DNA of 64,000 nucleotides from an uncultured Planctomycetaceae bacterium (lineage in GTDB: Bacteria > Planctomycetota > UBA8742 > UBA2392), in contig CAZZBH010000003.1 in assembly GCA_964652605.1 (NCBI GenBank), positions 7,800 through 71,799 of the forward strand, given 5' to 3'. Position 1 is the stretch's first letter. The number at the start of each line of letters is the position of its first letter. Shown piece by piece: positions 20,509-48,490 of the stretch. The translations under genes and the position numbers were made by a program. Below the pieces are notes generated by a model. It ran no database searches, was not told the DNA's origin, and saw only the letters and a list, made by a program, of their open reading frames with translations.

Positions 20509-20550
20509 GAAAACATCGAAGGAGCCAACGCTCCTTCGATGTTTTCTTTT
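20509..20550 (+). terminator. rho-independent terminator of pnp
   Basis: Perfect 17-bp stem gaaaacatcgaaggagc / caac / gctccttcgatgttttc, followed by tttt. Confidence 0.85.
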
Positions 20551-20712
20551 GGCTGCGCTGAGCCGGTGCTGGACACACTCCCCCGACATGACCGAATGGC
20601 GGCGTGTCAGCAACTTTCGCAGCGTGTGACTGAAATGTGACACAAGTATGGGCGGGCGATGACATTCACGGAATAGATTGCCTTTCGGTAATTGCTAACG
20701 CGAGAGCGGGCC

Positions 20713-21624
20713 ATGGCGTTCACTAATGCCAATCTGTTGATGAATCACCCGACCGCGCGGTGGTTGATTGAGAAAGATCCGACCATCCTGCAGATTGCCC
20801 GCGTCATGCCATTCCTCGGCATTGACGGGGATTCGATCAGGTACGCGCGCCGCACCACCGAATTGACCAACGCCGCGATTGTCAACGACGGCGCGGCGGC
20901 AATCGACAATTCCGGCGCGGCCGAGGACATCGAATTCGGATTGAACGAGTTCATCTCGACCTACAAGATCAAGGTCGCCGACCTGGACCGCTACGACAGG
21001 TCGGACGCGGCCCAATACGCCCTGGCGCTGCGCGCTGACTTGTACGGCTACTTCGCATGGCTGGACACTGTCCTGCCCAGCCTCGGTATCCAGACGAATT
21101 TGAGCAGCGCGCCACTGACGCTCGACACGATGGACGCCGCCTATCACGAGGTCCGCGCCAATGACGGCCGTCCGACGATTATCATGACTTCTACGCGCAT
21201 TCTTCTCTGGTACAACAAACTGTGCCGCGCCACGAACTACGAGCCGCCGATGGTGCCATGGCAGTGGTATGATCCGGCGGTGGGGCAGATGGTGTCTGGC
21301 TTCGCGCCGGCGTTCAACGGAACGCCGATCTTGATCAACGACAAACTGGCAAGCGGGAGTTCCGAAACCGCCGAGGATCAGCGCATCTACTTCATGGTAC
21401 TCGGCGACGACGGCAAAGCCGGCCCCACACGCGGCGTGACAGGCATCGTGCCGGAGAGGCTGAAGGGCACCATGTTCGTGAAACGGACGACCATGGGCGA
21501 TTGGTCAAGTGGGGTGGAGGAGCCGAACACCATCGCAACCACATGGGTAAGCTGGCCAGTCGGGATAGCGGTTGGCGCGGAGCGGGCACTAAGCGTCCTG
21601 ACCAACTTCAGCGCGCCGGAATAG
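20713..21624 (+). CDS. HK97-fold major-capsid / encapsulin-like shell protein (orphan)
   Basis: 303 aa from ATG 20713. Segment order resembles HK97-type capsids: SIRYARRTTELTNAAIVNDGAAAIDNSG...ISTYKIKVADLDR (compare HK97 gp5 ALEYVREEVFTNNADVVAEKALKPES, recalled from memory), TIIMTSTRILLWYNKL, FNGTPILINDKL (compare MWGLPVVPTKA), RIYFMVLGDD. No HMM was run. Confidence 0.45.
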   Translation: MAFTNANLLMNHPTARWLIEKDPTILQIARVMPFLGIDGDSIRYARRTTELTNAAIVNDGAAAIDNSGAAEDIEFGLNEFISTYKIKVADLDRYDRSDAAQYALALRADLYGYFAWLDTVLPSLGIQTNLSSAPLTLDTMDAAYHEVRANDGRPTIIMTSTRILLWYNKLCRATNYEPPMVPWQWYDPAVGQMVSGFAPAFNGTPILINDKLASGSSETAEDQRIYFMVLGDDGKAGPTRGVTGIVPERLKGTMFVKRTTMGDWSSGVEEPNTIATTWVSWPVGIAVGAERALSVLTNFSAPE

Positions 21625-21739
21625 AAAGCAGGAGACGGAGAAGGGAACAAGAGCCCGGAGCGCCAGCGACGGGAAGAGCGACAAGGCAACAAGGGATGTT
21701 CGGGAAGGCGCAAGCAAGCGCCCAACGCAAGGAGCCGCC
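21625..21739 (+). promoter_or_regulatory. purine-rich, GGA-dense intercistronic spacer
   Basis: The 115-nt spacer is overwhelmingly A/G on the coding strand and holds 7 GGA triplets. The last one lies in the AAGGAG Shine-Dalgarno sequence 6-7 nt before ATG 21740. Confidence 0.25.
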
Positions 21740-21952
21740 ATGGCCTGCGGATGCGGAGGACAGAAAATCGTAGTACCGCAAAGCACAGCCGCCAACGGGC
21801 CGCCGCTGGACTTTTCCACTATGCCCCGGGTCAGCCAATCAAAGGCCGACCCGGCAGTGGCGGCAACCAACAACGCGCGCGCGAAAACAGGCGCTCGCCG
21901 GCCTTGCACGTACCTCGCAAACACCTGGGCGCCCATCCCCGGCGCGTGTTGA
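21740..21952 (+). CDS. small Cys-bearing protein (70 aa), unknown
   Basis: AAGGAG SD upstream. Sequence MACGCGG...RRPCTYLANTWAPIPGAC has four Cys, at the extreme N- and C-termini. An alternative overlapping frame exists (21751..21969), so the call is tentative. Confidence 0.4.
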   Translation: MACGCGGQKIVVPQSTAANGPPLDFSTMPRVSQSKADPAVAATNNARAKTGARRPCTYLANTWAPIPGAC

Positions 21953-21972
21953 GCGCAACAGAGGACTGAACC

Positions 21973-22587
21973 ATGGTCGCAGGCTATCCCGGAACTCCAG
22001 TACCAGCGTACACCCACCCCGGCGCGTGGTGCGGTGTGCTGGCCGGCGATCCGTGCCGCGTCGTCTGCTATGCGGGCGAACGGGGTGAGTCTGCTCCGGC
22101 GGGAACCAAGTGGGTGTTTGGCGCGACCCCGGGCTATCACACCCTCGGCCCACCCGACAACTTTGCGCAATTGGTGGGTTCTTTTCCCTGCCCTCCGCAG
22201 TGCTGTGGAGTAGCGGGAGGCGGTCAACCGCCCTCCGGACCGCCGGTGGATGAGCCCGTTGTTCCGGAGGAAGGCGAGGACATCCCGACCAGCGATTATC
22301 CCGTGGACGACCCGGTACAAGGTCCAGGGCCTGGCCCATTGCCGCCGGGGCCGATCCCGCTGCCCGACCCGTTTCCGGAGCCTGTGCCGCCTCAGGGTGG
22401 CGGCGAGTATTCGGACTTTCCGTTCGCCAGCCTCGACCCGTGGGACTGGCCGGGCGGAAGCGGGCACGGGTCGCCAGGCGGACAGGAACCCATGCCAGCA
22501 AGCGGCGCGGGCGCGGTCTTTCTGCCGGACGTAACACCCACGGACACAGACCGGCTTGGCGAAGGCGCGCTTTCTCCACAAGGGTAA
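21973..22587 (+). CDS. Cys-cluster N-domain plus proline/acidic-rich disordered protein (204 aa)
   Basis: GAGGA lies 8 nt upstream of the ATG. N-half has WCGVLAGDPCRVVCYAG...FPCPPQCCG. C-half is PPSGPPVDEPVVPEEGEDIPTSDYPVDDPVQGPGPGPLPPGPIPLPDPFPEPVPPQ. Confidence 0.45.
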   Translation: MVAGYPGTPVPAYTHPGAWCGVLAGDPCRVVCYAGERGESAPAGTKWVFGATPGYHTLGPPDNFAQLVGSFPCPPQCCGVAGGGQPPSGPPVDEPVVPEEGEDIPTSDYPVDDPVQGPGPGPLPPGPIPLPDPFPEPVPPQGGGEYSDFPFASLDPWDWPGGSGHGSPGGQEPMPASGAGAVFLPDVTPTDTDRLGEGALSPQG

Positions 22588-22597
22588 CGGAACCGCA

Positions 22598-24229
22598 ATG
22601 GCGAACCCGAACTGCCAATGCCAACTGATCGTCTGGGGTCCGGCAGCCGACCTGAAGTTTGAGCCCGACATCGATCCCGGAGAGCCCCAGAAGCTGGTTC
22701 GCGCGTCGTTCCGCGAAATCTTTGTAGCCGTTGGTGGCGCACAGCAGTACAACGGCAGAATCACGTTGGTTCCCAAAGGGAATCAACCCTCGCCACCAGG
22801 TCGGTGGTCACTCGAAACACTGAGCCGAATGGGTCAAGCCAAACCCCTCCTTGAGTTCCGCGAGATCGATGTCTTGCCAATGTTCACGGGGAAAGCCCCA
22901 GTAATGGGTCCTTGGAACACCACGCTGATCGGCCCGGAAACCACTTGCGATACCTACCATCGTTTCCAGTTCCGCGCACCCCAAAATATTGAGCCAAACC
23001 ATCCCGACGACCCCTTCGACTTCTACCGGATCCGCCTCAAATGGCCTCACGACGTACCTGATCGCGACGCGGCAATTTGCATCGTAAGCGCCAAAGTGCT
23101 GCGCATGCGCGAGTCGCTGCCCGATGAGGATGAAGGGATAATCATTGTAGGCGTTGAAGATGAGGATGAGCGACGGAAGCGCAGGACGACATTTCTAAAC
23201 ATGGTAAATCCCGGTGGGGGTCTCGACAACTTGCCAATCGCCGGATTCATCAACGATGGGTTCGATCCAGATTGTGCGTATCAGAAACTGAACCAAGCCC
23301 AGAAGGACAAGCTCCACGTGCTGCATAAGGCGGGCTGGAGATTCGCCACCAAGGACGACGGTTCTACTTCCTACGGTGGCCTTGATATGGGCGGCAGAGA
23401 TGTCAGCAACATTGACGTCGAGATTGAGGATTCAGATTGGTCCGAACGGATGGCAAGCGGTGAAGATGTTCAATGGATCGACGACCGGTGGGGCGTCGAT
23501 TTCGACAACAAGATGCTCTACATCGACGCCGGAGACTGCGATACGGGAGCTACCATAGTTGGCGAGTTGCTAAAGAAGATGAAGGAGCCTGTGGCGGGAG
23601 GCATTGATAAGACGGACTTTCATGCTGGTATGGACAAATGGGCGCAGTTTGGCGGCGGCTTGGGAGACATCCAAGACCTGCTAAGCGCTGGCATCGTTGA
23701 CCAGAGGCGATGGAGTCAAGTTGGCTATCTAAACAAGGAAAAAATTCTGGGTGCATTGCAGAGCGGCATAGTAGAAGTTGCGGGTAGTTTTGTGCTGACA
23801 GCAGGATTTGGTGCGCTCGGACAAGTATTGAAGCTTTTCAAAATTGCAAAGGCCATGCGATCAATGCGTGGAGTCCTTGCTGGCAAAAGACTTGATGCTG
23901 GGCTATTTGCTCAAAAGACGTTCTCGCCGACCTTTGCTGAAAAGGGACTGCTACAGGGTGCAAAATTTGACGATGTAGTCAAAGCACTAAAAAATGGTAA
24001 TCTGAAAGTGGATGCCATGGGAATAGATTACATTACTAAAGCTGGGAGAACTTATATTGTGAACACCAGGTCAGCCATGGCCCTGCAGCGAGCTGGTATT
24101 AGCAGATCACAATGGAAAGTGTTGAATCGAACCGGAATGAAAGTGTATGAGGACAGGGTTGCCGCGCAGCTAGCGAGGAATGGTATGAAATGGGGAGACG
24201 GGGTAGCGGACCCTGCAATGGCGAAATGA
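22598..24229 (+). CDS. large modular protein with low-GC C-terminal cassette (polymorphic-toxin-like architecture)
   Basis: 543 aa from ATG 22598, 11 nt after the preceding stop. Contains a hydrophobic segment GIVEVAGSFVLTAGFGALGQVL. The C-terminal ~120 aa (GIDYITKAGRTYIVNTRSAMALQRAGISRSQWKVLNRTG) is encoded by DNA of about 38% G+C (45/120 at 23941-24060). Confidence 0.5.
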   Translation: MANPNCQCQLIVWGPAADLKFEPDIDPGEPQKLVRASFREIFVAVGGAQQYNGRITLVPKGNQPSPPGRWSLETLSRMGQAKPLLEFREIDVLPMFTGKAPVMGPWNTTLIGPETTCDTYHRFQFRAPQNIEPNHPDDPFDFYRIRLKWPHDVPDRDAAICIVSAKVLRMRESLPDEDEGIIIVGVEDEDERRKRRTTFLNMVNPGGGLDNLPIAGFINDGFDPDCAYQKLNQAQKDKLHVLHKAGWRFATKDDGSTSYGGLDMGGRDVSNIDVEIEDSDWSERMASGEDVQWIDDRWGVDFDNKMLYIDAGDCDTGATIVGELLKKMKEPVAGGIDKTDFHAGMDKWAQFGGGLGDIQDLLSAGIVDQRRWSQVGYLNKEKILGALQSGIVEVAGSFVLTAGFGALGQVLKLFKIAKAMRSMRGVLAGKRLDAGLFAQKTFSPTFAEKGLLQGAKFDDVVKALKNGNLKVDAMGIDYITKAGRTYIVNTRSAMALQRAGISRSQWKVLNRTGMKVYEDRVAAQLARNGMKWGDGVADPAMAK

Positions 24230-24753
24230 TCTACGTACTCAATGGTCGAGAGCGATTGCTACTTCGGTCGGATGTGCCTCAACCGCTGGAGGGAGCACCA
24301 CACCCGCTATTTATTTCGGACGAGAGGAGATTATTTCTTGCATATTTTGCTGAGGACGACGATGTTTCAATTGTTAATGATGGAGCGGTGAGTGAACCGC
24401 GCCTTGTCGAGCCGAACTCTGTTGACGATTTGGTTGCTGTCTGCGTGATGGAGTACTACTCCATGCATGCGGCACCGTTCGACTGGGAATCCCTTGCTGG
24501 ACATCCGCTTAGGGACAAGGGCCTCAACGTTTGCAACGTTTTTGAACTTCAGGCATCGAGTTGGATTGCCGACGTCGCACCACCTGACAAGGGCCTGCTG
24601 AACCCCCGCAAGTTTGAGCGCTGGAAGCATGTGATGTTTGTGTTCAATGATTCTATAATCGATATTATCGGGAGGAATCTTAGCTTCCAGGCTTCTAGAA
24701 CTGGTTCTAGGGAGGCAGTATTGCGCGAATTCTTCCGGAGTCGCAGTAGTTGA
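24226..24753 (+). CDS. immunity-like protein, translationally coupled to the preceding gene
   Basis: ATGA start/stop overlap at 24226-24229. 175 aa with G+C about 43% (26/60 at 24301-24360). Motif block GHPLRDKGLNVCNVFELQASSWIADV...FERWKHVMFVFNDSIIDIIG. Confidence 0.5.
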   Translation: MIYVLNGRERLLLRSDVPQPLEGAPHPLFISDERRLFLAYFAEDDDVSIVNDGAVSEPRLVEPNSVDDLVAVCVMEYYSMHAAPFDWESLAGHPLRDKGLNVCNVFELQASSWIADVAPPDKGLLNPRKFERWKHVMFVFNDSIIDIIGRNLSFQASRTGSREAVLREFFRSRSS

Positions 24754-24793
24754 GCATGAAGCAGGTCGGATCGAGAATGGTGGCAATGCTGAT

Positions 24794-25366
24794 GTGGTAG
24801 ATGCCTTTGGAGATTGTCCGGGCGGCACTTCTGCGGGCGTAGCCGCTGGCGGATTCGGTGGTTTCGGTTGCAACGGAAACGGAGGGCGCGGCGGGGACGC
24901 GACGGCAAGCGCCGCGCCGGAGATGACTGAGTCGATAGATCCGAAGGACTTTCCTGTCGAGTATTTGACCAGCAAGTTTGCCTTCGGCGGGGGCGGTGGC
25001 TACGGCATCGTCAAGGACACAAGTGCGCCGGATGGGCAGGGGGGTACGGGCGGCGACGCGATCATCCGCTTTGGTGCGCCCAGTACTACGCTGGATACTC
25101 GACACCGGCGCGCGATTGGAGGGTATGGAGGATTCGGCACGAACGCGGGAGGAGTTGGCGGTAGCGCCATCTGGGAACCCGAGAAGTACGGCGTTGACGC
25201 TCGCGGGAACGGGGGGCCGGGTGGCCAGAACAGCGTTCCGGGTGCAGTGCCAACTCACGGCACGCGGACGCCAGCGGCAGCCGCAAACGCCACACTAGTC
25301 AACCCGCCTATCCCCCAAGGTGGCGTCCCGGCTTGGAACGTGAATCAAAAGTACAGGTGTAGCTGA
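24794..25366 (+). CDS. glycine-rich protein (possible fragment)
   Basis: GTG start with no SD. Motifs GGFGGFGCNGNGGRGGD, FGGGGGYG, GQGGTGGDAIIRFG, GGYGGFGTNAGGVGGSAI. This composition is reminiscent of glycine-rich phage tail-fibre-type proteins. Start is uncertain. Confidence 0.35.
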   Translation: MVDAFGDCPGGTSAGVAAGGFGGFGCNGNGGRGGDATASAAPEMTESIDPKDFPVEYLTSKFAFGGGGGYGIVKDTSAPDGQGGTGGDAIIRFGAPSTTLDTRHRRAIGGYGGFGTNAGGVGGSAIWEPEKYGVDARGNGGPGGQNSVPGAVPTHGTRTPAAAANATLVNPPIPQGGVPAWNVNQKYRCS

Positions 25367-26877
25367 TGTTATCAAGGACGCGCATAGCACTTGTCCTGGC
25401 GGTGTTCATGATAAGTCTCGGTGTGGGAGGCGGCTTACTAATTAGACACAGATCGGTCCATGACTCCAATCAACCGAAGTCACTTCCACTGCGACTTTCA
25501 CAAGGGTCTTCAAGCAACGGCGAGGGCGACATTCAGTCGTCCGGGTCGCGCAGCAATGCAAGTAGTGAGGCTGACGCAGCGGCAATGCCGCCTCTGACCA
25601 ACTACCTCAGAATCAAATGCTTTCCGGAGCATGCGACGCGATCCGGCTTTTCAGTAGCACTAGCAGACGACCTGACGGTGACCGCGTCTGACGGCACCAG
25701 CAACTTGCGTTTATCGCAGCTTTTCGAGGCACCCGTTGCGTTGGTTGTGAAGGACCCACTTCCTGAACGAGTGGCGTTTCAATTGTGGCACGACATGGTT
25801 GACGAAGTGGTCTATTCCGGGCAGGCTGCCGCGCGAGAGGAGGGACTGTGCCGGTATTGGGATATTGTGATTCCTGCGGTCGCGGCAAGTATTACGATTG
25901 ATTTACCGGACGTTGAGGGGACAGTAGAAATAGGCTTTTATGGTTCTCCGAAATGGCGCGACGGCAACTACCCTTTTGGCGGCGAGATTGCATGCAGAGT
26001 GGAGAGGTGTACTACTATGACCGCTTGGTTGTTGCCGTGGACATACTGGTTAGGTGGCAACGACCTCGACGTCAAATGGCCGGACCCACCCTCTGACAGG
26101 CCGTCATACCTAGAAACGCAGTTTGAGTTCGATTCTGACTCAGTCGACTTGCGATTCGGCAGGTACGTGAGAATAGGGCTCACCATAACGCGGGTTGAAA
26201 CGTGGCGGCCAATCAACACGCTTGGGAGGAGAGTGACCGCTGCGTATGTGCGCGATGGTATTGGGCACGGCTCGGTTATCCCCTATGAGGACGATGGTCC
26301 CCATGAGATTAGCCTTGAGCAGGTTAGTCGGCCAAGCGATAATGAACGGTACGAGGGTAGGCGAGTATTGTATCACCAATCAGGTGATTGGGCAGTCACT
26401 GTGTCGGGAGATGTGTGGTTTCGTGAGCCAGAGTCGTGGCATACACCCTCCATCGCTGTACTTGAATTTGAAGATGGCGGGTTTTCCATCGTTCGCCGAA
26501 CGGAGCCGCTTGGCGAGGATGTCACGGAGCTGGTTGTTCCCGGAACGCCGGGGGATGGCGGCACCGTGGAGTTTAAAGTCTCCGCGCCGGATCACGCGGA
26601 GGGCCTGTCGCTGGAGTGCCATGTCCGGCTCCCGCAATGGGAGGCCGACGAGATTTTCTATTACATCAAAGATGTGGCGTTGCCGTCCAATGGCACTTCT
26701 ACAATCCGGATACCCTACGGGGCTGAGCTATGGATTACGGAGTTCAACTTCTCAAAGGAAGCCAACCTTGAGGTTGTTGAACCGAAGAGAGACGCCCGCA
26801 GGCGAAGTTCACGTTGGAGACAACCTTTTCGAGCGGGCGACACCGCAACCATCAAACTTGCAGATCGGAACGGCTAA
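25366..26877 (+). CDS. N-terminally membrane-anchored beta-rich protein, unknown
   Basis: TGATG stop/start overlap at 25364-25368. TM anchor IALVLAVFMISLGVGGGLLI. 503 aa with G+C about 48% in the sampled line 25921-25980. Confidence 0.55.
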   Translation: MLSRTRIALVLAVFMISLGVGGGLLIRHRSVHDSNQPKSLPLRLSQGSSSNGEGDIQSSGSRSNASSEADAAAMPPLTNYLRIKCFPEHATRSGFSVALADDLTVTASDGTSNLRLSQLFEAPVALVVKDPLPERVAFQLWHDMVDEVVYSGQAAAREEGLCRYWDIVIPAVAASITIDLPDVEGTVEIGFYGSPKWRDGNYPFGGEIACRVERCTTMTAWLLPWTYWLGGNDLDVKWPDPPSDRPSYLETQFEFDSDSVDLRFGRYVRIGLTITRVETWRPINTLGRRVTAAYVRDGIGHGSVIPYEDDGPHEISLEQVSRPSDNERYEGRRVLYHQSGDWAVTVSGDVWFREPESWHTPSIAVLEFEDGGFSIVRRTEPLGEDVTELVVPGTPGDGGTVEFKVSAPDHAEGLSLECHVRLPQWEADEIFYYIKDVALPSNGTSTIRIPYGAELWITEFNFSKEANLEVVEPKRDARRRSSRWRQPFRAGDTATIKLADRNG

Positions 26878-26959: not shown

Positions 26960-28774
26960 TCAGCGGCGGAGGTCTTTGAGTTCGAGCTCTACTTCGGGGT
27001 GGCCTCGCCAGGTGCTGATTCTGGGCGTGAAGGCGGCCCTTAGTTTGCTGCCGCGCTCGAACTCTCCTATGCGCGCCCCCATCCCGAACCCGATGGCCTT
27101 GAAGCTGCCGCTGCCGCTGCGCTTCAGCATCATGCTCAGGTGCCCCGTCCCGCGACCTACCACGCGCGGCGCCGAGGCGACCTCAAGATCCTCGGTTGAA
27201 AATACCGGCTCCGGGTTGCCCTGCCCGAACGGCTCCAGCGCTTCCAACCAGCGCACGCCCGCCACATCCAGCTCATGCAGATCGATGCGCGCATCGATGT
27301 CCAGCGTCGGCGTGGCATAGTCGGCTTGCAGCACGTGCTTATCGGCAACTTCATTTACGGCGCGGCGCAACAGCCCCATGTTTTCGCGGCTGATTTCAAG
27401 CCCCGCAGCCTGCTCGTGGCCGCCGAAGCGGCTCATCAGGCCGGAGCAATCGCTCAGCGCGTTGTACAGGTGAAAGCCCGGGATGCTGCGGCCCGAGCCG
27501 CGGCCCGTGCCGCCGTTGAGCGCAACCAGAACAGCCGGCTTGTTGAATCGCCGCGAGATTCGCGCGGCGACAATTCCGACGACTCCGGGGTGAAACTCGT
27601 CGTGCGAAAGCACCAGTACACGGTCGCGCGAATACGTTTCGTCGGCGAGCACGATTTCTTCGGCGATGCCGGTCAGTCTGCGGTCCACTGTCTGGCGCTG
27701 CTTGTTCAGCTCGTCGGCTTCGGCGGCGAGTTTGATGGCTTCGCCGTAACTGCGGGCGGTGAGCAGCTCGACGGCCAGGCTTTCGCGGCCCATGCGCCCG
27801 CCGGCGTTGAGGCGCGGCGCGATCTTGAATGCAATATCGGTGCCGGTTGGAACGCCCGTGAGACCGCTGGTTTCCATCAGCGCGCGAATGCCGGGGTTGG
27901 GGCTGTCGGGCATGCAGCGCAAGCCGCTGCGGGTCAACACGCGGTTGTCGCCGACCAGCGGCACGACGTCAGCCACGCTGGCAAGCGCGACCAGGCTTTG
28001 CGCGCCGGCGAGGAAGTCCTTGAACGCAGCGTCGAGGTCGCGCCCGGTTGACACGCGCTGCAGAAGCGCCCAAGCCAGCTTGAACGCCACGCCGGCGCCG
28101 CAAAGGTCGCGGAACTTCACTTCTTCGCCCTTGCAGTGCGGGTTGAGAATGGCATGCGCCGGCGGCAGCGTTTCGCCGACGGTGTGGTGGTCAGTGATGA
28201 TGGCGTCGATGCCCAGGTCGCGTGCAAGCTCAACCTCGCGGTTGGCCGTAGTGCCGTTGTCGCAGGTGATCAGCAGCTTCACGCCCCGCGCGGCGGCTTT
28301 GCGCACTGCGTTTTCACTCAAGCCGTAGCCGTCTTCAGCGCGCGAGGGGATGCAGGCATCGACTTCGCGGCCAAGCAGACGAAAGAAATTGACCAGCAGC
28401 GCGGTGCTTGCGCTGCCATCGACGTCGTAGTCGCCCTGAATTGCGATGCGCTCGCCGCGATCGAGTGCGGCGCGGATGCGCTCAACGGCCCGTTCCATGT
28501 CACGAAATGTGAAGGGGTCTTCAAGGTGGGCGCTGCTGGGGTTCAAGTAGCGCGAGGCTGTGTCCGGGTCGCGGATGCCGCGGTTGACCAGCGCACGGGC
28601 CACAAACTCCGGCACTCGCAGGCCCGCCGCCAGCTCCTGCACCAGCGAAGCGCGCTGCGAAGCGACACACCAGGCAGAATCAATGGGCGATCTTGCGCTG
28701 TCGGTTGCAGACTGCGGATTGCTCACCGCTACCCCCTGCCTGGCATTAGTACACCACAGTGCCGACAGGGGCAA
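26960..28774 (-). CDS. recJ: single-stranded-DNA-specific exonuclease RecJ
   Basis: DHH motifs: IAIQGDYDVDGSASTALL, LLITCDNG, DAIITDHH. DHHA1 GGHEQAAG. The N-terminal start is uncertain; only one Met lies in the ORF 5' region. Confidence 0.9.
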   Translation of the reverse strand: MPLSALWCTNARQGVAVSNPQSATDSARSPIDSAWCVASQRASLVQELAAGLRVPEFVARALVNRGIRDPDTASRYLNPSSAHLEDPFTFRDMERAVERIRAALDRGERIAIQGDYDVDGSASTALLVNFFRLLGREVDACIPSRAEDGYGLSENAVRKAAARGVKLLITCDNGTTANREVELARDLGIDAIITDHHTVGETLPPAHAILNPHCKGEEVKFRDLCGAGVAFKLAWALLQRVSTGRDLDAAFKDFLAGAQSLVALASVADVVPLVGDNRVLTRSGLRCMPDSPNPGIRALMETSGLTGVPTGTDIAFKIAPRLNAGGRMGRESLAVELLTARSYGEAIKLAAEADELNKQRQTVDRRLTGIAEEIVLADETYSRDRVLVLSHDEFHPGVVGIVAARISRRFNKPAVLVALNGGTGRGSGRSIPGFHLYNALSDCSGLMSRFGGHEQAAGLEISRENMGLLRRAVNEVADKHVLQADYATPTLDIDARIDLHELDVAGVRWLEALEPFGQGNPEPVFSTEDLEVASAPRVVGRGTGHLSMMLKRSGSGSFKAIGFGMGARIGEFERGSKLRAAFTPRISTWRGHPEVELELKDLRR

Positions 28775-28990
28775 GCGTGCACGCTACGTAACTTGTTTTA
28801 TCAACAGTGTTTCCGCAAAATATACGGACTTGACTGCCACGCCCTTGCTACGACAATCACACGACCACTTGTGGAGCGATTGGTGATCCAGCGTGTGCGA
28901 TATGTGCAATCATTTGACGCAACGTATTGCAAGAGGTACGGTTAGAAACCGCGGAGCCCGCGGCGCTAAAGGCTTTTGACGGAGGCACCG

Positions 28991-31900
28991 ATGAGGCAAA
29001 TGCTCGCCGCCGTAGTGGCGACAATTCTGGCGGGTTCAGTCTCGGCGCAGACAACCTTCGTCTCTACACCCAATCAGCCGATCCCCGACAATTCGCCCAA
29101 CGGCGTCACGAACACGATTGTCATTCCGCCCACGTCCGACCGCATCCGGTCATTGCGTGTCGGAGTGCGCATCCAGCACACATACACCGCAGACCTTGAT
29201 ATCTGGCTGATCCCGCCCGGCGTGACCTGGAGCGGGCCGTACACCACAATCAATAACGGGCCGGTGGTGGAGGCGCCCCCCGGCGTGATCCAGCTTTCCA
29301 CCAACAACGGCTCCTCTGGCGACAATTACGGCAGCACGACCAACTCGTCGGTTTACGCGAACTTCAGTTCACCCAGCGACACGACGTGGCCGGCTGCGCA
29401 ATCGGTGACTAACGGGAATGCCCCGTTCACGTCGCAGTCGCAGTGGATTCCGGAATGGCGGGGCGCGTGGGACACGATGTACGGGCGCGACCCTTCCGGC
29501 GCGTGGACGCTGGCTGTCGGTGACGGATGGGCGCTCGATACCGGCACCCTGCTGGCATGGCGGATCGAGTACATGCCCGTCACACCGCCGTCACTGATCG
29601 TGCGCCAGGGAGAGGCCAACCGCCCCGGCACGCCGGCTGTTCCGGGCCAGGCCGGCCAGGTGCTGGGCCAGGCCCGCATTGAGGCAGTCGGCAACAATGC
29701 CATTTCGGGCGTGACGGTGACGGCGCAGAACGGCGTGAACATCGGTACGAGCCTTTCGCAACTGGCGCTGTATGCGGACACAAACGAAGACGGGCTGCTT
29801 GATCCGGGTGACACCTTTCTTCTGGCAGCGTCCTTGTCGGGCAGCACCGCGACGTTCAACTTCGGGGCGTCGGTGCCGCTGACATCGGGCACGACCGCGG
29901 CGTTGCTTCTCGTTGGCGACGTGCGGCCATCGCCGGCTGCTACGGGCTTGACGCTGCAGATCACGAATGCCGGCGCAATCGGCGGTGCGACGGGGGTGTT
30001 CGGGGTTTTTCCGGTGGTGTTTGGATTTCATCCGTTTGCGAGCTTGCGCACCTACACCAGCGTGCCGCCTGGCGGCAGGCAAATTCCGAACAACCAGGCG
30101 TATGGCGTGCGGGACTCGATTCAGATCCCGCCATTGAACGAGCGCGCGGCAAGCATCCGTGTCGGCGTGCGAATCCAGCACGACCGGCTTCAGGACATTG
30201 ACATGTATCTGCTGCCGCCGGGCGTGGACTGGAGCGGGCCCTATACCGGCTCCGGACCAGCCGGAGTGATTGAACTGAGCTCCGACAATGGCGGCAACGG
30301 CGACAACTACGGGACGGGCAACGGGCCGTTCGTGTTCACGTTATTCTGCAGCCAGACAGACCCGAATCTTGCCTGGCGCGCCAACCGCAACATCATCACT
30401 TCAAATCAGAATGAAGCACCGTTCACGCACCGTCCCGCCTACTACCCCGAAGACCAGAGCGATTTCAACGCGCTGTACAATGCGGATCCTTCGGGCCAGT
30501 GGACACTGGTTGTTCTGGATGATGCAGGCCAGAACAACGGCGGCGAGTTGATCGGTTGGCAGATCGAGTATCTGGCTCACCCGATTGCCACGCTGGCTGG
30601 CAACGCGGACCTTGGATCGGCGACCGTAGGATTCCCCAGCGGGGTGTCACCGCGCACTTTCACGATCGGCAACGACGGGGACTATCCGCTGGCGGTATCG
30701 GGCATCACGTTTGTCGGCGCGCACGCGGCGGATTTCAGCCGCAACGCGATATCGTTTCCGGTGAACGTCGCGCCCGGTGGCAGCTTCAACTTTAACGTGA
30801 CCTTCACGCCGACGGCTGATGGCGTGCGGCATACAACGCTTCGCGTGCTGTCGAACGAGAACGGCATCCCGGGCACCGCGGACGACATAACGATCTGGGG
30901 CTTTGGCGAAATGCCGGACCAGTTGCTGATCAATCCAGGGTTCAACAATCATCCGGGAGAGAGTTTCAAACACGCCGAAACCAACGCGGTCTTCGGGCAG
31001 TACGAGTTCGCCACTGGGGCCTCAGCGGTGACGGTGAACAGCGTGACGATCCGCGAGGAGTCAAACCTTGCGTTGGCCGCCAACCTGTCCAACCTGCGCC
31101 TGTATCACGACACCGACAACGACGGCGAGCACGGCCCGGGCGACGTGTTACTGGGCATCGCGGCGCTGGGGCCTACAGACGGGTTCGCTACGTTCAATGT
31201 GGGCCGCGTGATCGGTGCGCAGACCTTTGAGAATTGGATTGTTGTCGGCGACGTGCTTGCCACACCCGTCAACCAGCTGCTTGCGCTTGAGATTCGCGCC
31301 GCGACGGACGTAGTTGCCTCGCACACTCCGGCTGTGCTGTTCCCGGTATCAACGGGCCCGCGCACGCTGGATTCACAACGCGTGTTTACCAACACGCATC
31401 CCGGTGGCCTCTTGATCCCGAACAGCAGCACTGTCGGCGTGACCAGCAGCATCGTGATCCCGCCGACGACTGAGACAATCGCAGCGTTTCGCGTCGGTGT
31501 GCGCATCGATCACCCCGTGGATGAAGACATCGAGATGTGGCTGATCCCCCCCGGCGTGACGTGGAACGGACCATACTCCGGCAGCGGGCCAGCCGGGGTG
31601 ATCGAGCTGTCGAGCGACAACGGCGGCTCCGGCCAGGACTATGGCAGCGGCGCGTTTGACTTCGTGTATGCCAACTTCACGTCGGCGACTGACCAGGTTT
31701 TCACGCCGTCGGTGAACATTGCCGGGCAGGGCACCAGTGCCGCGCCGTTCACGAGCACGTACTACCGCCCCGAAGATCAAACCGACTTCAACGCGCGCTA
31801 TGGGCAAAGCCCGTCCGGCACCTGGACGCTGGCGGTGCGCGACGACGCCGGAAACCAGTTTACGACCGGCCGCCTGATTTCATGGCAGATCGAGTACAGG

Positions 31901-34900
31901 CCGCCGGCGACGCCGGTGGTCACCGGATTGTCTGACTGGGGCGGCAGCAACGTCGGTGCAGCTTCCGGGTTGAACCCGCAGTCGTACACAATCACCAACG
32001 TCGGCGGAACGCAGCTTGACATAACCGGCCTTTCGCTTGCCGGCGCAAATCCCGGCGACTGGGCCTTCAACGGGCCCACCGGCGCGCCGCTGTCTTTGGC
32101 ACCCGGATCGTCGCACAACCTTGCGCTGAATTTTGCACCGACCGCACTGGGGGCGCGCGCAGCCGTTTTGCGCGTTACCTACAACAACGGGCTGCAATCA
32201 GGTTTGACGCTGAACTTTTCTCTCACCGGCCTGGGCACGCGCGGTTTGATCGGCGTAACTACGCCCGTCGATTACGGCAGCGGGTTGATCGGAAGTCCGT
32301 CATCCGGGTCGCCGGTCACGCACACCGTAGCCAACACGGGCAATGGTCCGTTGACGATCACGGGCGTAAGCCTGCAGGGCACGCATGCCGCAGACTGGTC
32401 GCTGTCCGGCTTGCCGATCTTTCCCGTGGTGATACCGGTCGGCGGTAATCTTCAGTTCACGGGCACGCTCGTCGCCGATGATGTCGGCACGCGGCAAGCC
32501 ATCATCCGCATTACCAGCGACACCAACAACGCTCCCGGCACGCCGACCGATATCGCTGTATCCGGCGTGGGCATCGCCTTTGGCGAAATCGATGTGACAT
32601 CACCGGTGGATTATGGTCAGGGCAACCCCGGCAATGCTTCGTCGCTTTCGCCGGTTACGCACCAGGTCAACAACATCGGCGCATCGCCGCTGACGGTCAC
32701 CAGTGTGGTGATGGCCGGCACCGACGCCGGTGACTGGATGCTCAGCCTGCCCGGCATGCCGGTAGTGATCGCGCCCATGGGCTCGTTCACGTTTCAGGCT
32801 ACCCTGACGCCGTCGGCTGTCGGCCCGCGCAACGCGATTGTGCGCGTGTTCAGCGACACTGGTGGCGTACCGGGAACGCCCACGGACATTGTTGTGTTCG
32901 GTCTCGGCACGGCAGGTGTCATCCAGACCGCGGGTGGGCCGGTTGATTACGGCTCAGCCAACCCGGGCACGGTAAGCAGCCTTTCACCCCGGACGCACGT
33001 GATCTCCAACATCGGCAACGGGCCGCTTACACTTTCAAGCATCGGCATTGTCGGCACGCATGCGTCCGAGTGGCAGATCATTTCCGCCCCGCCGACGCCC
33101 GTGGTGATCGGCCCGAGCGGCAGCATCAACGTGCAGGTGCAGATGACTCCCGGCGGCATCGGCCTGCGTGAAGCCACGTTGCGCATCGAGAGCGACAGCA
33201 ACGACACGCCCACGCAGACAAACGTGGCATTACAGGCGCAGGGCACACGCGGCGTGCTATCGACCGACGCTGGGCCGGTTGACTATGGCGCGGGCGAGAC
33301 CGGCACCCCAAGCGCGCTTTCGCCGCGCACGCACGTGCTTGCGAACACTGGCGACGGCCCGTTGACGATTTTCGGCATCAGCCTGCTGGGTACGCACGCC
33401 GCCGACTGGACGTTGATCGGCGCGCCTTCAGGCTTTCCGGTCATCATTCCGGTTGCGGGCAGCATTCAGTTTGACGGCCAGCTTGTGCCGGCGGCGATGG
33501 GCGCACGAGATGCCGTCCTGCGCATCGAAAGCGACAGCAACGACATGCCCACTCAAACAAACGTACCGCTGCAAGGCTTGGGACTGGCCGCGACGACCGT
33601 AAGTGGGGTGACGGTTGGCGGCGACACCGGCGGCCCGGTGCTGGTTCAAGCACTGGTGTCTGGTCCGATGTCTTCACTGGTGGATGTGACGGTAACCTAT
33701 GCGGGCGGCAGCAATCCCGGCCCCGCGGTGCTGTCTGATGCTGGCGGTCTGGCGGTTTCGGGCAACATGATCCAGGGCATTCCGGCAAACACCACGCTGT
33801 CACTCCTGTGGGATGCCTATGCGTCTGAGCGCCATACCACCGCGTCAGACTACGTGCTGACACTGACCCCGTCGCAGGCGGCAGTGCTTGGCGAGCCGGG
33901 CAGCAGCGCGCCGTTCACGCTGCAACGCTCCGGCGGGTGGGCGCACCACGTGTCGCCCGAGGGCGCGGCGCCGGGCGTGTATTCGCACACCATGGTGTAC
34001 GACGACGCGAATGACCGTGCCGTGGTTTTCGGCGGGCGCGACACCGGCGCCAGGCTGAACACCGTGTGGGTGTTCGAGCGTTCAAGCCAGTATCAGGGAT
34101 GGCATCAGCTTCAGCCCGCCGGCACGCCTCCGTCGGGGCGGCAGTACTCGCACGCGATCTATGATGCCGCAAACCAGCGCATGGTGGTTCACGGTGGTTT
34201 GACCGACGGCGGCGTCGCGGCCGATACCTGGGCGCTGAGCCTTGTTCGCGGCTCAGAGGCATGGACGCAGATCGCCGCTGGTTCACCGCCGCCTGCGCGT
34301 CGCAGCGCCAGTCTTGTCGTTGACACGGCACGCAACCGCGCGCTGCTGTTTGGCGGTATGGGAGCGGGCAATTTCAACGACGTGTGGGCGCTTGATCTTG
34401 CGACCGATACCTGGAGTCAACTGACGCCGTCGGGCAGTCCGCCCGTTGCGCGATTCGGTCACGCAGCGGCACTGGACGCAACCGGCGACCGCATGCTGGT
34501 GATCGGCGGCAGGTCCGGCACGGGCGATTTAATGGATGTCCATGAGCTCAGCCTGGCCGGCGCGGGAACCTGGGGCGCGATTGCCGTGCTGGGAACGCCG
34601 CCTTCGCCGCGGTACTTCACGACTTACGGATGGGATGCGGTCAATCGACGTCTTATCCTGCAGTGCGGCTACAGCGGCACGACGCCGCAGCGAGACATGT
34701 GGTACCTTTCGGCGGCTGGCGGCCCGACCTGGAGCCAGTTGCCCCCTGACGCCAATGCCGGCACGGGCCGGGTTGTAGGCGGCGCGGTACTGGACATCGC
34801 GCGCGAGGAGCTTCTGTTCTACGGCGGCACGGGGGTTGCGGGCCTCACATCGCCCGCGGTTTCCGTGCTTGACGTGTCTGCCGCGCCGGCGTGGGCGCCA

Positions 34901-36820
34901 TCAGCCGGCCCTGAGCCGGTGGGGCCGGACGGCCGCTGGGGCGGCTTGATGGCCTGGGATCATATTAACGACCGCGTGATTGCATGGGGTGGCAAAGACC
35001 ACACCTCGTACTTCGGTGACGTTTGGGTGCTTGATCAGTCATCCTTGACTGGCGAGTGGACACGGCTGCCGGTATCGGGGCCGCAGCCCGCGCCGCGCAC
35101 CTATTGCGCCTACGCCGTGGACACAGTGAACAACCGCCTGATCATTCACGGCGGCGGAATCTCCACCGGCAGCCTTACGAACGAGTTGTGGACGCTGGAT
35201 CTTGCCGCCGGCACCTGGACCCAGTGGCCGACAGGCGGCGGGCCGGCGCCGCGCGACCAGCACGTGCTGGTGTATGACAGCCTGCGCAACCGCGCCATCA
35301 TTCACGGCGGGCGCGCACCAACACCGAGCAACGGCGCGTGGGCGTACAACTTTGATCTGGGTATGTGGGCCGCGGTCGCGCTGCCCGCCGGGCCGATCGG
35401 CTTGTATGGCCATGGTGCAACCTATGACAGTGTCAACGACCGCATGGTGGTGTTCGGCGGACGCAGCACGGTTGCGCGGCACAACGAGGTGTGGGCGCTG
35501 AGCCTGGCACCGTCCAGCGAGCAGTGGACCGACATTTCGGCGCAGACGGGAACAATCCCGACGGGGCGCCAGTACTTCGGGGCAGCCTCCAACAGTCTGG
35601 GCACGCGCGCCTGGATTCACGCCGGCGACATTGGCGGCGCGACCAGCGAACTGTGGCAGCTTGACCTGGCTGGCACAGAGGCTGCCTGGACGCTGATGCC
35701 CACTCTCGGCTCAGCGCCGCTGCCGCGCTATCTGGGCAATGCCTGCATCTCGCCCGGCGGCATGCTGTATGCGGGGTTCGGGTTCCTCGACAATCGCGGC
35801 GCAGCCGATGTCTGGCGCTATGACACCCTGGCGCCGGGTGGCGGATGGACGCAGACCGGTGGCGGCGCGCCCCTGTCACTGGTTTCGACCAGTCATGCGT
35901 ACGACCCTGTCGGCAACCGCCTGATCGCCTTTGGCGGCCTTGGCGGGGGCGTGCACCAGACCGGATTGTGGCAGCTTGACCTGTCAAGCCCGGTGGCTGA
36001 GTGGTCGCCGTTGAACGTGTCAGGCCCGTCGCCAAGCGCGCGACGCAGCGCGAGCATGGTGTACGACGGAAGCAGCTCACCTCCGCGCATGCTGATGTTC
36101 GGCGGCCGCACCGCCTATGACCACGCCAGCATTGTCAGTGAGCTGTGGGCACTGGAACTCAGCCCGGGCAATGAGCAGTGGATAGAGCTTGCACCGACGT
36201 TCACGCAGCACCCCGGTGCGCGCACGAACCACGGCGCGGTAATCGATGGCAGCAACCGCATGATCGTGTACGGCGGCATCAACACTTCCGGCACCAGCAT
36301 CGGAACCGTGTTCGCCCTTGACCTGGGCACGCTGGACTGGAGCCAGTTGACGCCCACAGGCGTGTCGCCGCCGCCGCGCTATTCCATGGCCATGGTGTAC
36401 GACGCGCCGCGCAATCGCATTGTCATCCACGGCGGCATCCAGACCGGCGGCACGCTGCTGGCTGACACCCGCGTGCTAAGCCTCAGCGGAACACCTGCCT
36501 GGAGTGTGCTGTCGGCAAGCGGTACCGGCCCGGGGGCGCTGTACTACGCGGGCGCGGTAGTGGACCCTGCAGGCGAGCGCATGCTGATTTCGTGCGGCCA
36601 CGCCGTGGTGCCGCAGTCGCGCCTGTTTGAACTTGACCTTGCAACGGACACTTGGGCTGAGCGCACGCCCCCTGTCGCCCGGCCGCAGGCGCGCTGGTCG
36701 CATATCGCCGTTTGGGATACTGCCGGCAGCCGCATGGTGCTCGCCGGCGGCTACCTGCAGGGCGAGGTACCGGCATCGCAGGCCGGCGGCCGCGCGGACA
36801 CATGGTTCTGGGGCGAGTAG
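28991..36820 (+). CDS. giant secreted multi-domain protein: 3 proprotein-convertase P-domains, 6 choice-of-anchor-D-like modules, long Kelch-repeat region
   Basis: GGAGG lies 6 nt before ATG 28991. Signal peptide MRQMLAAVVATILAGSVSAQ. The P-domain pattern IP(D/N)N..GV...I.IPP....I...RVGVRI.H....D(L/I)(D/E)(I/M)WLIPPGV.W.GPY...W(R/Q)IEY occurs three times (about 29.05-29.59, 30.05-30.58 and 31.38-31.90 kb). Choice-of-anchor-D-like modules have VDYG....SP.TH...N.G..PLT. Kelch-like motifs (.W.L.P.G.PP..R..H...YD...R..V.GG) run from about 33.95 kb to the end. Confidence 0.85.
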   Translation: MRQMLAAVVATILAGSVSAQTTFVSTPNQPIPDNSPNGVTNTIVIPPTSDRIRSLRVGVRIQHTYTADLDIWLIPPGVTWSGPYTTINNGPVVEAPPGVIQLSTNNGSSGDNYGSTTNSSVYANFSSPSDTTWPAAQSVTNGNAPFTSQSQWIPEWRGAWDTMYGRDPSGAWTLAVGDGWALDTGTLLAWRIEYMPVTPPSLIVRQGEANRPGTPAVPGQAGQVLGQARIEAVGNNAISGVTVTAQNGVNIGTSLSQLALYADTNEDGLLDPGDTFLLAASLSGSTATFNFGASVPLTSGTTAALLLVGDVRPSPAATGLTLQITNAGAIGGATGVFGVFPVVFGFHPFASLRTYTSVPPGGRQIPNNQAYGVRDSIQIPPLNERAASIRVGVRIQHDRLQDIDMYLLPPGVDWSGPYTGSGPAGVIELSSDNGGNGDNYGTGNGPFVFTLFCSQTDPNLAWRANRNIITSNQNEAPFTHRPAYYPEDQSDFNALYNADPSGQWTLVVLDDAGQNNGGELIGWQIEYLAHPIATLAGNADLGSATVGFPSGVSPRTFTIGNDGDYPLAVSGITFVGAHAADFSRNAISFPVNVAPGGSFNFNVTFTPTADGVRHTTLRVLSNENGIPGTADDITIWGFGEMPDQLLINPGFNNHPGESFKHAETNAVFGQYEFATGASAVTVNSVTIREESNLALAANLSNLRLYHDTDNDGEHGPGDVLLGIAALGPTDGFATFNVGRVIGAQTFENWIVVGDVLATPVNQLLALEIRAATDVVASHTPAVLFPVSTGPRTLDSQRVFTNTHPGGLLIPNSSTVGVTSSIVIPPTTETIAAFRVGVRIDHPVDEDIEMWLIPPGVTWNGPYSGSGPAGVIELSSDNGGSGQDYGSGAFDFVYANFTSATDQVFTPSVNIAGQGTSAAPFTSTYYRPEDQTDFNARYGQSPSGTWTLAVRDDAGNQFTTGRLISWQIEYRPPATPVVTGLSDWGGSNVGAASGLNPQSYTITNVGGTQLDITGLSLAGANPGDWAFNGPTGAPLSLAPGSSHNLALNFAPTALGARAAVLRVTYNNGLQSGLTLNFSLTGLGTRGLIGVTTPVDYGSGLIGSPSSGSPVTHTVANTGNGPLTITGVSLQGTHAADWSLSGLPIFPVVIPVGGNLQFTGTLVADDVGTRQAIIRITSDTNNAPGTPTDIAVSGVGIAFGEIDVTSPVDYGQGNPGNASSLSPVTHQVNNIGASPLTVTSVVMAGTDAGDWMLSLPGMPVVIAPMGSFTFQATLTPSAVGPRNAIVRVFSDTGGVPGTPTDIVVFGLGTAGVIQTAGGPVDYGSANPGTVSSLSPRTHVISNIGNGPLTLSSIGIVGTHASEWQIISAPPTPVVIGPSGSINVQVQMTPGGIGLREATLRIESDSNDTPTQTNVALQAQGTRGVLSTDAGPVDYGAGETGTPSALSPRTHVLANTGDGPLTIFGISLLGTHAADWTLIGAPSGFPVIIPVAGSIQFDGQLVPAAMGARDAVLRIESDSNDMPTQTNVPLQGLGLAATTVSGVTVGGDTGGPVLVQALVSGPMSSLVDVTVTYAGGSNPGPAVLSDAGGLAVSGNMIQGIPANTTLSLLWDAYASERHTTASDYVLTLTPSQAAVLGEPGSSAPFTLQRSGGWAHHVSPEGAAPGVYSHTMVYDDANDRAVVFGGRDTGARLNTVWVFERSSQYQGWHQLQPAGTPPSGRQYSHAIYDAANQRMVVHGGLTDGGVAADTWALSLVRGSEAWTQIAAGSPPPARRSASLVVDTARNRALLFGGMGAGNFNDVWALDLATDTWSQLTPSGSPPVARFGHAAALDATGDRMLVIGGRSGTGDLMDVHELSLAGAGTWGAIAVLGTPPSPRYFTTYGWDAVNRRLILQCGYSGTTPQRDMWYLSAAGGPTWSQLPPDANAGTGRVVGGAVLDIAREELLFYGGTGVAGLTSPAVSVLDVSAAPAWAPSAGPEPVGPDGRWGGLMAWDHINDRVIAWGGKDHTSYFGDVWVLDQSSLTGEWTRLPVSGPQPAPRTYCAYAVDTVNNRLIIHGGGISTGSLTNELWTLDLAAGTWTQWPTGGGPAPRDQHVLVYDSLRNRAIIHGGRAPTPSNGAWAYNFDLGMWAAVALPAGPIGLYGHGATYDSVNDRMVVFGGRSTVARHNEVWALSLAPSSEQWTDISAQTGTIPTGRQYFGAASNSLGTRAWIHAGDIGGATSELWQLDLAGTEAAWTLMPTLGSAPLPRYLGNACISPGGMLYAGFGFLDNRGAADVWRYDTLAPGGGWTQTGGGAPLSLVSTSHAYDPVGNRLIAFGGLGGGVHQTGLWQLDLSSPVAEWSPLNVSGPSPSARRSASMVYDGSSSPPRMLMFGGRTAYDHASIVSELWALELSPGNEQWIELAPTFTQHPGARTNHGAVIDGSNRMIVYGGINTSGTSIGTVFALDLGTLDWSQLTPTGVSPPPRYSMAMVYDAPRNRIVIHGGIQTGGTLLADTRVLSLSGTPAWSVLSASGTGPGALYYAGAVVDPAGERMLISCGHAVVPQSRLFELDLATDTWAERTPPVARPQARWSHIAVWDTAGSRMVLAGGYLQGEVPASQAGGRADTWFWGE
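32240..33590 (+). repeat. four tandem ~111-codon choice-of-anchor-D-like modules (intragenic tandem repeat)
   Basis: Consecutive units begin GLIGVTTPVDYGSG, EIDVTSPVDYGQG, VIQTAGGPVDYGSA and VLSTDAGPVDYGAG. The last two share LRIESDSND(T/M)PTQTNV. Confidence 0.8.
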
Positions 36821-47822: not shown

Positions 47823-47893
47823 GTCAGGATGGCGAGGGTGAAAAGTTGCGCGGCCTTGACTTTGCCGCGCAAGGATAAAACGAAAGGAAAACC

Positions 47894-48478: not shown

Positions 48479-48490
48479 GTGGAGAGTCCA

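Follow-up and report, generated by a model that had tools for sequence, protein, structure and literature searches.

A candidate polymorphic toxin cassette headed by an encapsulin-like shell gene in a planctomycete genome

Encapsulins are known as metabolic or storage compartments, and polymorphic toxins travel by secretion systems or, in the case of the MuF toxins, in phage heads. The cargo of Family 2 encapsulins, i.e., a cysteine desulfurase, terpene cyclase, polyprenyl transferase or xylulose kinase, carries conserved motifs in disordered termini (PMC8346489). Among the polymorphic toxins, the Tox-ParBL1 class has a ParB fold with the signature motifs [ST] and [NT][RT][RT]; a displaced module downstream of the toxin gene is common in these systems, LRR proteins are listed among them as immunity-type proteins, and MORN_2 proteins also have a precedent (PMC3482391). 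Here, we analyzed seven genes, P1 to P7, located between pnp and recJ in a stretch of 64,000 nucleotides (the window) from an uncultured Planctomycetaceae bacterium (assembly GCA_964652605.1, contig CAZZBH010000003.1, positions 7,800 to 71,799). On balance, we favor the explanation that a domesticated HK97-fold, encapsulin-like shell gene stands at the head of a polymorphic toxin cassette formed by these genes.

The pnp-recJ interval (20551-26877) consists of seven co-oriented open reading frames (ORFs), for four of which, P1, P2, P4 and P7, the public gene calls agree exactly with ours. Their features, in amino acids (aa) where lengths are given, are as follows:

20713-21624, + strand: P1, the shell protein, 303 aa from an ATG; a longer ORF begins at TTG 20692
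21740-21952, + strand: P2, the small partner of the shell gene, 70 aa, starting with MACGCGG
21973-22587, + strand: P3, 204 aa, with a Cys-containing N-terminal part and the rest Pro-rich
22598-24229, + strand: P4, the modular toxin ORF, from ATG 22598, with an alternative TTG start at 22556
22598-23122, + strand: P4 N-terminal domain, residues 1-175, starting with MANPNCQCQ; a candidate shell-targeting or trafficking domain
23204-23686, + strand: P4 middle domain, residues 203-363
23750-24217, + strand: P4 C-terminal toxin domain, residues ~385-540, with a suspected ParB/sulfiredoxin-like fold
24226-24753, + strand: P5, candidate immunity protein, 175 aa, with an alternative ATG at 24190
24794-25366, + strand: P6, Gly-rich protein with GGxGG[DS]A-type repeats
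25366-26877, + strand: P7, 503 aa, with a hydrophobic N-terminus that is interpreted as a membrane anchor

The shell protein P1 and its family

An earlier interpretation made from the letters and translations of this DNA (the sequence-only reading) had described P1 as a capsid-like shell protein, and structure prediction supported the HK97 fold. The AlphaFold2 model of P1, built with 38 family members, reached a predicted local distance difference test (pLDDT) score of 83 and a predicted template modeling (TM) score of 0.79, and it contains N-arm helices, a long E-loop hairpin, a 28-residue spine helix, and P and A domains. When the model was compared with the PDB by Foldseek, the seven best matches were all Family 2A/2B encapsulin shells, with 8t6r the highest (E 6.6e-16, TM 0.68), followed by 8wol, 6x8m, 8won, 9bje, 9bix and 9bhu; full-length TM scores to assembled encapsulin shells ranged between 0.62 and 0.68. 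HK97 and other phage capsids ranked after the encapsulins, from E 2e-10, and the best match among the predicted viral structures of BFVD (E 3.6e-13) also scored below them. The HK97-fold shell that defines an encapsulin is therefore present in P1, according to the model.

Sequence comparisons were less specific. P1 matched phrog_212, a major head protein, with E 4e-8, which was the sole PHROGs match among the seven proteins. There was no match of P1 to the SrpI-like family PF19307 of Pfam at E <= 1, which leaves P1 outside Family 2 in terms of sequence membership, and no match in NCBIfam; a search of PDB sequences with the P1 family profile found nothing. Weak matches to the SrpI-like family were detected in 4 of 38 P1 relatives, with a best E of 1.3e-4. 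Based on the model, P1 is a capsid-derived shell protein whose predicted fold is nearest to Family 2 encapsulins, and which lies outside the described encapsulin families by sequence.

Relatives of P1 are few and nearly all from Planctomycetota, with 43 detected among 5.8 billion clustered proteins, and those that are named come from metagenome-assembled genomes (MAGs) of Planctomycetes/Planctomycetota and from one member of Fimbriimonadaceae. Our genome scan identified 29 loci of the P1 family, several of which are near-duplicates from related MAGs; single MAGs contained 3-4 copies, 30-45% identical to P1. In the loci with gene calls and Pfam marks (L001, L002 and L036-L038) the flanks are cellular, encoding ABC transporters, pyruvate:ferredoxin oxidoreductase, DNA polymerase III tau and arginase, and no portal, terminase or protease gene was found in these neighborhoods. 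Likewise, searches of the window with Pfam, PHROGs and NCBIfam revealed no portal, terminase, protease or integrase near the shell gene, and no relative of the shell family was found in the 2.9 million contigs of IMG/VR. The family thus shares with encapsulins the lack of neighboring phage morphogenesis and packaging genes. Cellular flanks that contain neither portal, terminase nor protease rule out a prophage or satellite remnant as a general explanation for these loci.

Two further observations concern the integrity of the shell genes and their surroundings. The shell gene is broken into two ORFs in three loci (L010:9846-10849, L027:10001-10962 and L032:9884-10970), and these may be decaying copies or assembly frameshifts. 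The closest relative, L004, with a shell protein 84% identical to P1, contains three extra + strand ORFs between the shell gene and the gene for the small GCGCGG protein (L004:1693-3376), one of them with a hydrophobic, signal-peptide-like N-terminus; the cassette therefore tolerates insertions after the shell gene.

The toxin P4, the Cys-motif partners and the downstream genes

An exhaustive HMMER search with P4 returned 793 matches, and a word-indexed search returned P4 alone. Among the matches listed, nearly all cover residues ~385-540 of P4, and most carry this region at their own C-terminal end. The carriers range from 83 to 2303 aa; those that were scanned include RHS-repeat/DUF6531 proteins, an RHS-core protein and a PT-HINT protein, and the P4 domain shares 35-49% identity with its counterparts at the C-terminal ends of RHS/PT-HINT-type proteins. 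Since the occurrence of one domain at the C-terminal end of varied architectures is a hallmark of polymorphic toxins, P4 is, judged by homology, a polymorphic toxin, in agreement with the toxin-like modular protein proposed previously.

The toxin domain has no Pfam match, and a PDB sequence search with the domain profile found nothing. Its AlphaFold2 core was predicted with a pLDDT of ~96, and Foldseek returned matches to ParB and sulfiredoxin structures with E 0.05-0.1 and a Foldseek probability of 0.6-0.84. An NTR motif is invariant within the domain family and is almost always followed by S (NTRS), and the NTR fits the [NT][RT][RT] signature of Tox-ParBL1 (PMC3482391). We tentatively assign the P4 toxin domain to the ParB/sulfiredoxin fold.

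Among the loci examined, the N-terminal domain of P4 was found only in proteins adjoining P1 relatives (L004, L005 and L021), and it was also seen in P0045, P0096 and P0135. L021 encodes two such proteins with three copies of the domain, one protein having the domain twice in tandem. Among the five carriers, four kinds of C-terminal part occur, and only those of the L004 protein and the 1120-aa protein of L021 are alike. Both marks of polymorphic toxins were thus detected, i.e., a conserved N-terminus with variable C-termini, and the same C-terminal domain on unrelated N-termini. The middle domain of P4 is 46% identical to residues 299-458 of P0046 and has no Pfam match. Pfam searches of P2-P7 revealed none of the known trafficking domains (MuF, RHS repeats, PT-HINT, or those of type V, VI and VII secretion systems as far as Pfam holds them), and MuF, RHS repeats and PT-HINT had no match in the other partner proteins scanned either. 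The N-terminus of P4 is not hydrophobic, as judged by reading and without a signal-peptide predictor. Given that no known trafficking domain was found, the N-terminal module of P4 appears to be new.

The neighbors of P1 are tied to it by a short cysteine motif. The + strand gene that follows the shell gene contains CxC or CxxC near its start in ~25 of 30 loci, compared with 4.8% of 354 background ORFs (binomial p 1e-28). The motif is located a few residues after the initial Met, and its type tracks the clade of the shell protein: small proteins of 70-80 aa with GCGCGG are encoded in the window (P2), L002, L004, L005, L016, L018 and L021, long partners with DCGCG in L028, L030, L031 and L038, and long partners with C[PNTG]xC in the remaining clades. 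P4 and its relatives start with a similar motif (MANPNCQCQ). In the long partners, the N-terminal 90-180 aa are conserved and the C-terminal parts are unrelated, and this was also observed in partner clades c1 and c14. Clade c1 has low-complexity, probably disordered N-terminal regions with repeated FTLAE..A..V.P motifs, which resemble the motifs in the disordered cargo termini of Family 2 (PMC8346489).

Homologs of P2 were identified in L004 and L005 (phmmer 1e-19), where the homologs of P2 and P3 keep the order seen in the window and the P3 C-terminus, ALSPQG, is conserved. In the 1120-aa toxin-like protein of L021, a region similar to the N-terminal part of the L004 P3 homolog is fused upstream of P4-type N-terminal domains. 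Because of this fusion, P3 likely either represents an N-terminal piece that has separated from the toxin or serves as an adaptor. If the P4 ORF is extended to TTG 22556, it would overlap P3 by 32 nt, and an identical 32-nt overlap is present in L005; a single gene may have been split into P3 and P4, or frameshifting might join the two. The gene after the partner often encodes a repeat protein of the LRR, MORN_2 or PDZ type. When Pfam was run on 29 partner and neighbor proteins of the related loci, LRR and MORN_2 were the only matches apart from a weak TPR match (E 0.017).

P5 overlaps the stop codon of P4 (ATGA), and its G+C content of 0.51 is similar to that of the toxin domain. By position alone, it is a candidate for the cognate immunity protein, in line with the immunity-like role suggested earlier. 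The start of P5 is ambiguous (ATG 24190 or 24226), and as its 175-aa version is absent from the public protein collection, the database call probably uses another start.

The last two genes were described earlier as encoding a Gly-rich and a membrane-anchored protein, and both descriptions fit the translations, P6 being Gly-rich and P7 having a hydrophobic N-terminal stretch. In L002 the shell gene is followed by a gene for a 758-aa protein, and residues 587-731 of this protein are matched by residues 8-164 of P6 (phmmer 2e-17), so P6 is probably a stand-alone copy of an effector C-terminal domain. P7 aligns colinearly with the 494-aa protein encoded after the Gly-rich domain in L002, over 464 aa and at 20% identity (pairwise E 3e-4), and both begin with a hydrophobic N-terminal stretch. 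Based on these matches, P6 and P7 look like a second, displaced effector/partner module.

Base composition, borders and probable transfer of the cassette

The G+C counts given in the sequence-only reading (44/60, 45/120, 26/60 and 29/60) were exact, and the G+C content of the interval is 0.578 compared with 0.638 in the rest of the window. The tetranucleotide z-score reached 3.0-3.3 for 3-kb windows over 22-27 kb, the sole windows above 1.6 in the 64 kb. A sharp departure in composition is thus confirmed, with the strongest tetranucleotide outlier at 22-27 kb; however, the break starts at P4 and not at 20551. Similarly, the G+C content is lower inside the interval, as had been claimed, but the proposed stepwise fall is not monotonic, with values of 0.65 for P2, 0.68 for P3, 0.57, 0.53 and 0.48 for the N-terminal, middle and C-terminal domains of P4, 0.51 for P5, 0.64 for P6 and 0.55 for P7. 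A second, smaller dip (0.55-0.56) with positive GC skew is located at 47501-48500.

The G+C content at third codon positions (GC3) separates the shell gene from the genes that follow it. P1, with a GC3 of 0.80, is host-like when compared with pnp (0.82) and recJ (0.79), whereas partner genes in the window range between 0.53 and 0.65. Across 27 loci the mean GC3 was 0.805 for shell genes and 0.659 for partner genes (Wilcoxon p 2e-5). This split indicates a resident, host-adapted shell gene followed by imported 3' modules; a foreign composition is confined to the toxin, immunity and effector modules. A single seven-gene island gained as a unit is not the preferred reading, since the codon composition of P1 is host-like and its family is resident and multi-copy in Planctomycetota.

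The pnp-recJ site itself was compared with relatives whose RecJ is 73-78% identical. In these genomes one side of recJ is syntenic, with a giant Kelch gene, a methyltransferase and an ABC transporter, and the other side contains neither pnp nor the cassette, which points to the pnp-recJ junction as a rearrangement point rather than a clean insertion site. In the window, a giant ORF of 2614 aa, divergent from recJ, is located at 28976-36820; at the matching position L033-L035 encode a Kelch/beta-propeller protein of 2712-2850 aa, followed by a methyltransferase and an ABC-2 transporter, and this is the conserved side of the recJ neighborhood.

A different arrangement was detected in L038, where 429 bp from the 3' end of an arginase gene are directly duplicated and enclose the cassette (L038:8300-15948), with a fragment of 153 aa on the left and the full gene on the right (95% identical in DNA and 99.3% in protein). 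This sequence arrangement suggests that the duplicate was imported together with the cassette from a related donor through homologous recombination. In L036 a DDE transposase gene (L036:11804-12570) is located inside or beside the cassette, after a PDZ-domain gene.

The remaining features of the interval concern its borders and spacing. On the left, pnp (with rpsO) ends at 20451, and on the right recJ converges on the minus strand (26960-28774). Two non-coding elements were identified:

20509-20550, + strand: intrinsic terminator of pnp, with a perfect 17-bp stem (20509-20546), a 4-nt loop and a T run, forming the left boundary of the cassette
21625-21739, + strand: purine-rich spacer of 115 nt between P1 and P2, with an AT skew of 0.41 in 21501-22000 and no Rfam match

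The terminator had been recognized previously, as had the seven + strand ORFs with short gaps or overlaps, which we found to be a 10-nt gap between the P3 stop and the P4 ATG, ATGA at 24226 and TGATG at 25364. No tRNA was detected in the 64-kb window, no flanking or border repeats of the interval were found, and no Rfam matches were obtained in the region. Pfam, NCBIfam and PADLOC returned nothing usable for the seven proteins, with integrases and transposases absent there, and Pfam returned nothing for the antisense ORFs. The absence of an integrase, transposase, tRNA or att repeat at the borders, as stated earlier, agrees with these searches, and the interval therefore carries none of the usual marks of a prophage or integrative island, i.e., an integrase or transposase, a tRNA target or att repeats. 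No convincing promoters were found.

Possible function, alternatives and comparison with known systems

Based on the folds, the shared domains, the conserved gene order, the motif enrichment and the composition pattern described above, we propose the following mechanism for the toxin cassette. P1 would assemble into an encapsulin-like shell, and the N-terminal Cys motif or domain of P2 and P4, and possibly of P3, would act like an encapsulin cargo-loading signal or a phage capsid-targeting sequence and bring the toxin into or onto the shell. The exchangeable C-terminal domain of P4, probably of the ParB/sulfiredoxin type, would act on nucleotides or nucleic acids, and P5 would neutralize P4 in the producer. 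P6 and P7 would represent the second, displaced module, as is frequent downstream of polymorphic toxin genes. The resident shell gene would stay in place while its 3' modules are swapped by recombination or horizontal transfer, and such swapping would explain the fall in G+C. Shell assembly, cargo loading, the immunity functions and particle release are steps that we infer from this pattern. As a further step, a loaded, genome-free HK97 shell might be released and deliver Cys-motif toxins to competing bacteria, which would be an unrecognized trafficking route; we put this forward tentatively, as possible rather than probable.

Several points weigh against a shell-borne toxin cassette. P1 lacks an encapsulin match in Pfam and weakly matches real phage head proteins of Pseudomonas and Xanthomonas phages (23-30% identity in tblastn). 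The closure of its shell and the binding of the N-termini are predictions, and no export route is evident for a particle of ~24 nm. Only the P4 of the window is tied to known toxin architectures, the other partners being without annotated domains, and its ParB-fold assignment is weak (E 0.05). No homologs of P5 were found in the related loci examined, and P5 is dissimilar to the neighbor encoded downstream of an RHS protein in L039 that bears the P4-type toxin domain. In addition, the ORFs of the related loci were called with a home-made GC3 filter, and because of the near-duplicates the independent counts of loci are nearer 20 than 30.

Among the alternatives, the genes could constitute an intracellular defense or abortive-infection module, in which the shell sequesters the toxin within the cytoplasm of the producer and releases it upon phage infection or stress, with P5 as the antitoxin instead of a protection from incoming toxin. 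The cassettes are multi-copy, variable and compositionally foreign, as defense islands often are, and several defense systems sense capsid proteins; moreover, Pfam found no trafficking domain or export machinery in the island and partner proteins scanned. However, PADLOC finds nothing in the island, and the toxin domain of P4 is common to RHS and PT-HINT proteins, i.e., secreted interbacterial toxins. A conserved N-terminus with swapped C-termini and a displaced module is the signature of competition toxins (PMC3482391). We consider the defense function unlikely.

It is less likely still that P1 does not form a closed shell and serves instead as a chaperone, scaffold or secretion adaptor for Cys-motif proteins that leave the cell by another route. 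Genetic linkage and co-variation of the motif with the shell clade demonstrate a functional tie and not encapsulation, and the split shell genes of L010, L027 and L032 would be compatible with such a role. On the other hand, the P1 model has all HK97 elements required for capsomer formation, and its full-length TM scores relate it to assembled encapsulin shells. To our knowledge, no HK97-fold protein acts as a monomeric chaperone.

A decayed prophage, gene-transfer agent or phage-satellite remnant, with the downstream genes as morons or tail-fiber-like genes, would account for the phrog_212 match, the tblastn matches to Pseudomonas and Xanthomonas phage head proteins and the atypical G+C content. 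We rejected a prophage remnant, and regard this whole group of explanations as very improbable, in view of the lone capsid gene in ~30 loci from which other phage genes are absent, the lack of relatives in IMG/VR and the host-like GC3 of the shell gene. Paralogs from the same genome are 30-45% identical and each keeps its Cys-motif partner, and a gene order that is repeatedly preserved is not what decay would produce. An ordinary metabolic Family 2 encapsulin located beside an unrelated toxin-immunity island by chance was dismissed as the least credible explanation of all, since the best structural matches are indeed Family 2A/2B shells but no cysteine desulfurase, terpene cyclase, polyprenyl transferase or xylulose kinase is encoded in the window or among the partners scanned, and the adjacency to Cys-motif genes recurs across loci with different flanks.

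If the proposed toxin cassette is correct, it would provide a new class of cargo and a new N-terminal loading signal for encapsulin engineering, as well as a candidate route of toxin trafficking in Planctomycetota. If loaded shells were indeed released to deliver toxins to competitors, they would also represent a fifth functional class of encapsulins and a new, secretion-independent arm of interbacterial warfare. Linocin M18, the first name of an encapsulin, was reportedly credited with bacteriocin activity in old reports that were later discounted, and these reports would have to be revisited.

Compared with known systems, the P1 loci are closest to Family 2 encapsulins (SrpI of Synechococcus, 6x8m; A. 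baumannii 2A, 8t6r; Mmp1, 8wol; and Streptomyces 2B). In each case the shell protein is ~300 aa long, has the HK97 fold with an N-arm and short N-terminal helices, and is encoded without other phage genes, and in both the neighboring proteins have N-terminal extensions, partly low-complexity or disordered, with short conserved motifs (PMC8346489). In contrast to Family 2, P1 shows ~17% identity and no match to the SrpI-like family of Pfam, its partners are toxin-like with no Family 2 cargo enzyme in the window or among the partners scanned, and an N-terminal CxC/CxxC is not a described loading signal. The P1 family is furthermore multi-copy per genome, with swapped 3' modules.

The MuF toxins of temperate phages are similar in being polymorphic toxins tied to an HK97-type capsid, into which they have been proposed to be loaded (PMC3482391; PMC5576092), and they share with the P4-type proteins variable C-terminal toxin domains. 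Unlike MuF systems, the cassette lies outside any prophage, between pnp and recJ, and lacks a MuF domain, a portal and a terminase; its N-terminal module is a Cys motif plus a domain unrelated to MuF. The RHS/PT-HINT toxins, and the Tox-ParBL1 class in particular, resemble P4 in the C-terminal domain, as reflected in the identity of 35-49% and the NTR that fits the signature (PMC3482391). P4 differs from them in having no RHS repeats, PT-HINT or other known pre-toxin/trafficking domain. A further parallel is found in the internal proteins of phage T4, which are otherwise unrelated but are routed into an HK97-fold head by a short peptide at the N-terminus. The T4 route depends on a scaffold core and a prohead protease as well as on DNA packaging, none of which is encoded in the cassette.

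Full-text literature searches for encapsulins together with polymorphic toxins, toxin/immunity or Planctomycetes found no such system described, which, along with the Pfam, PHROGs, NCBIfam and PADLOC results, agrees with the initial impression that this combination of genes matches no described system. A genome-resident, portal-less shell gene that is linked to exchangeable toxin modules would bring together the fields of encapsulins and polymorphic toxins.

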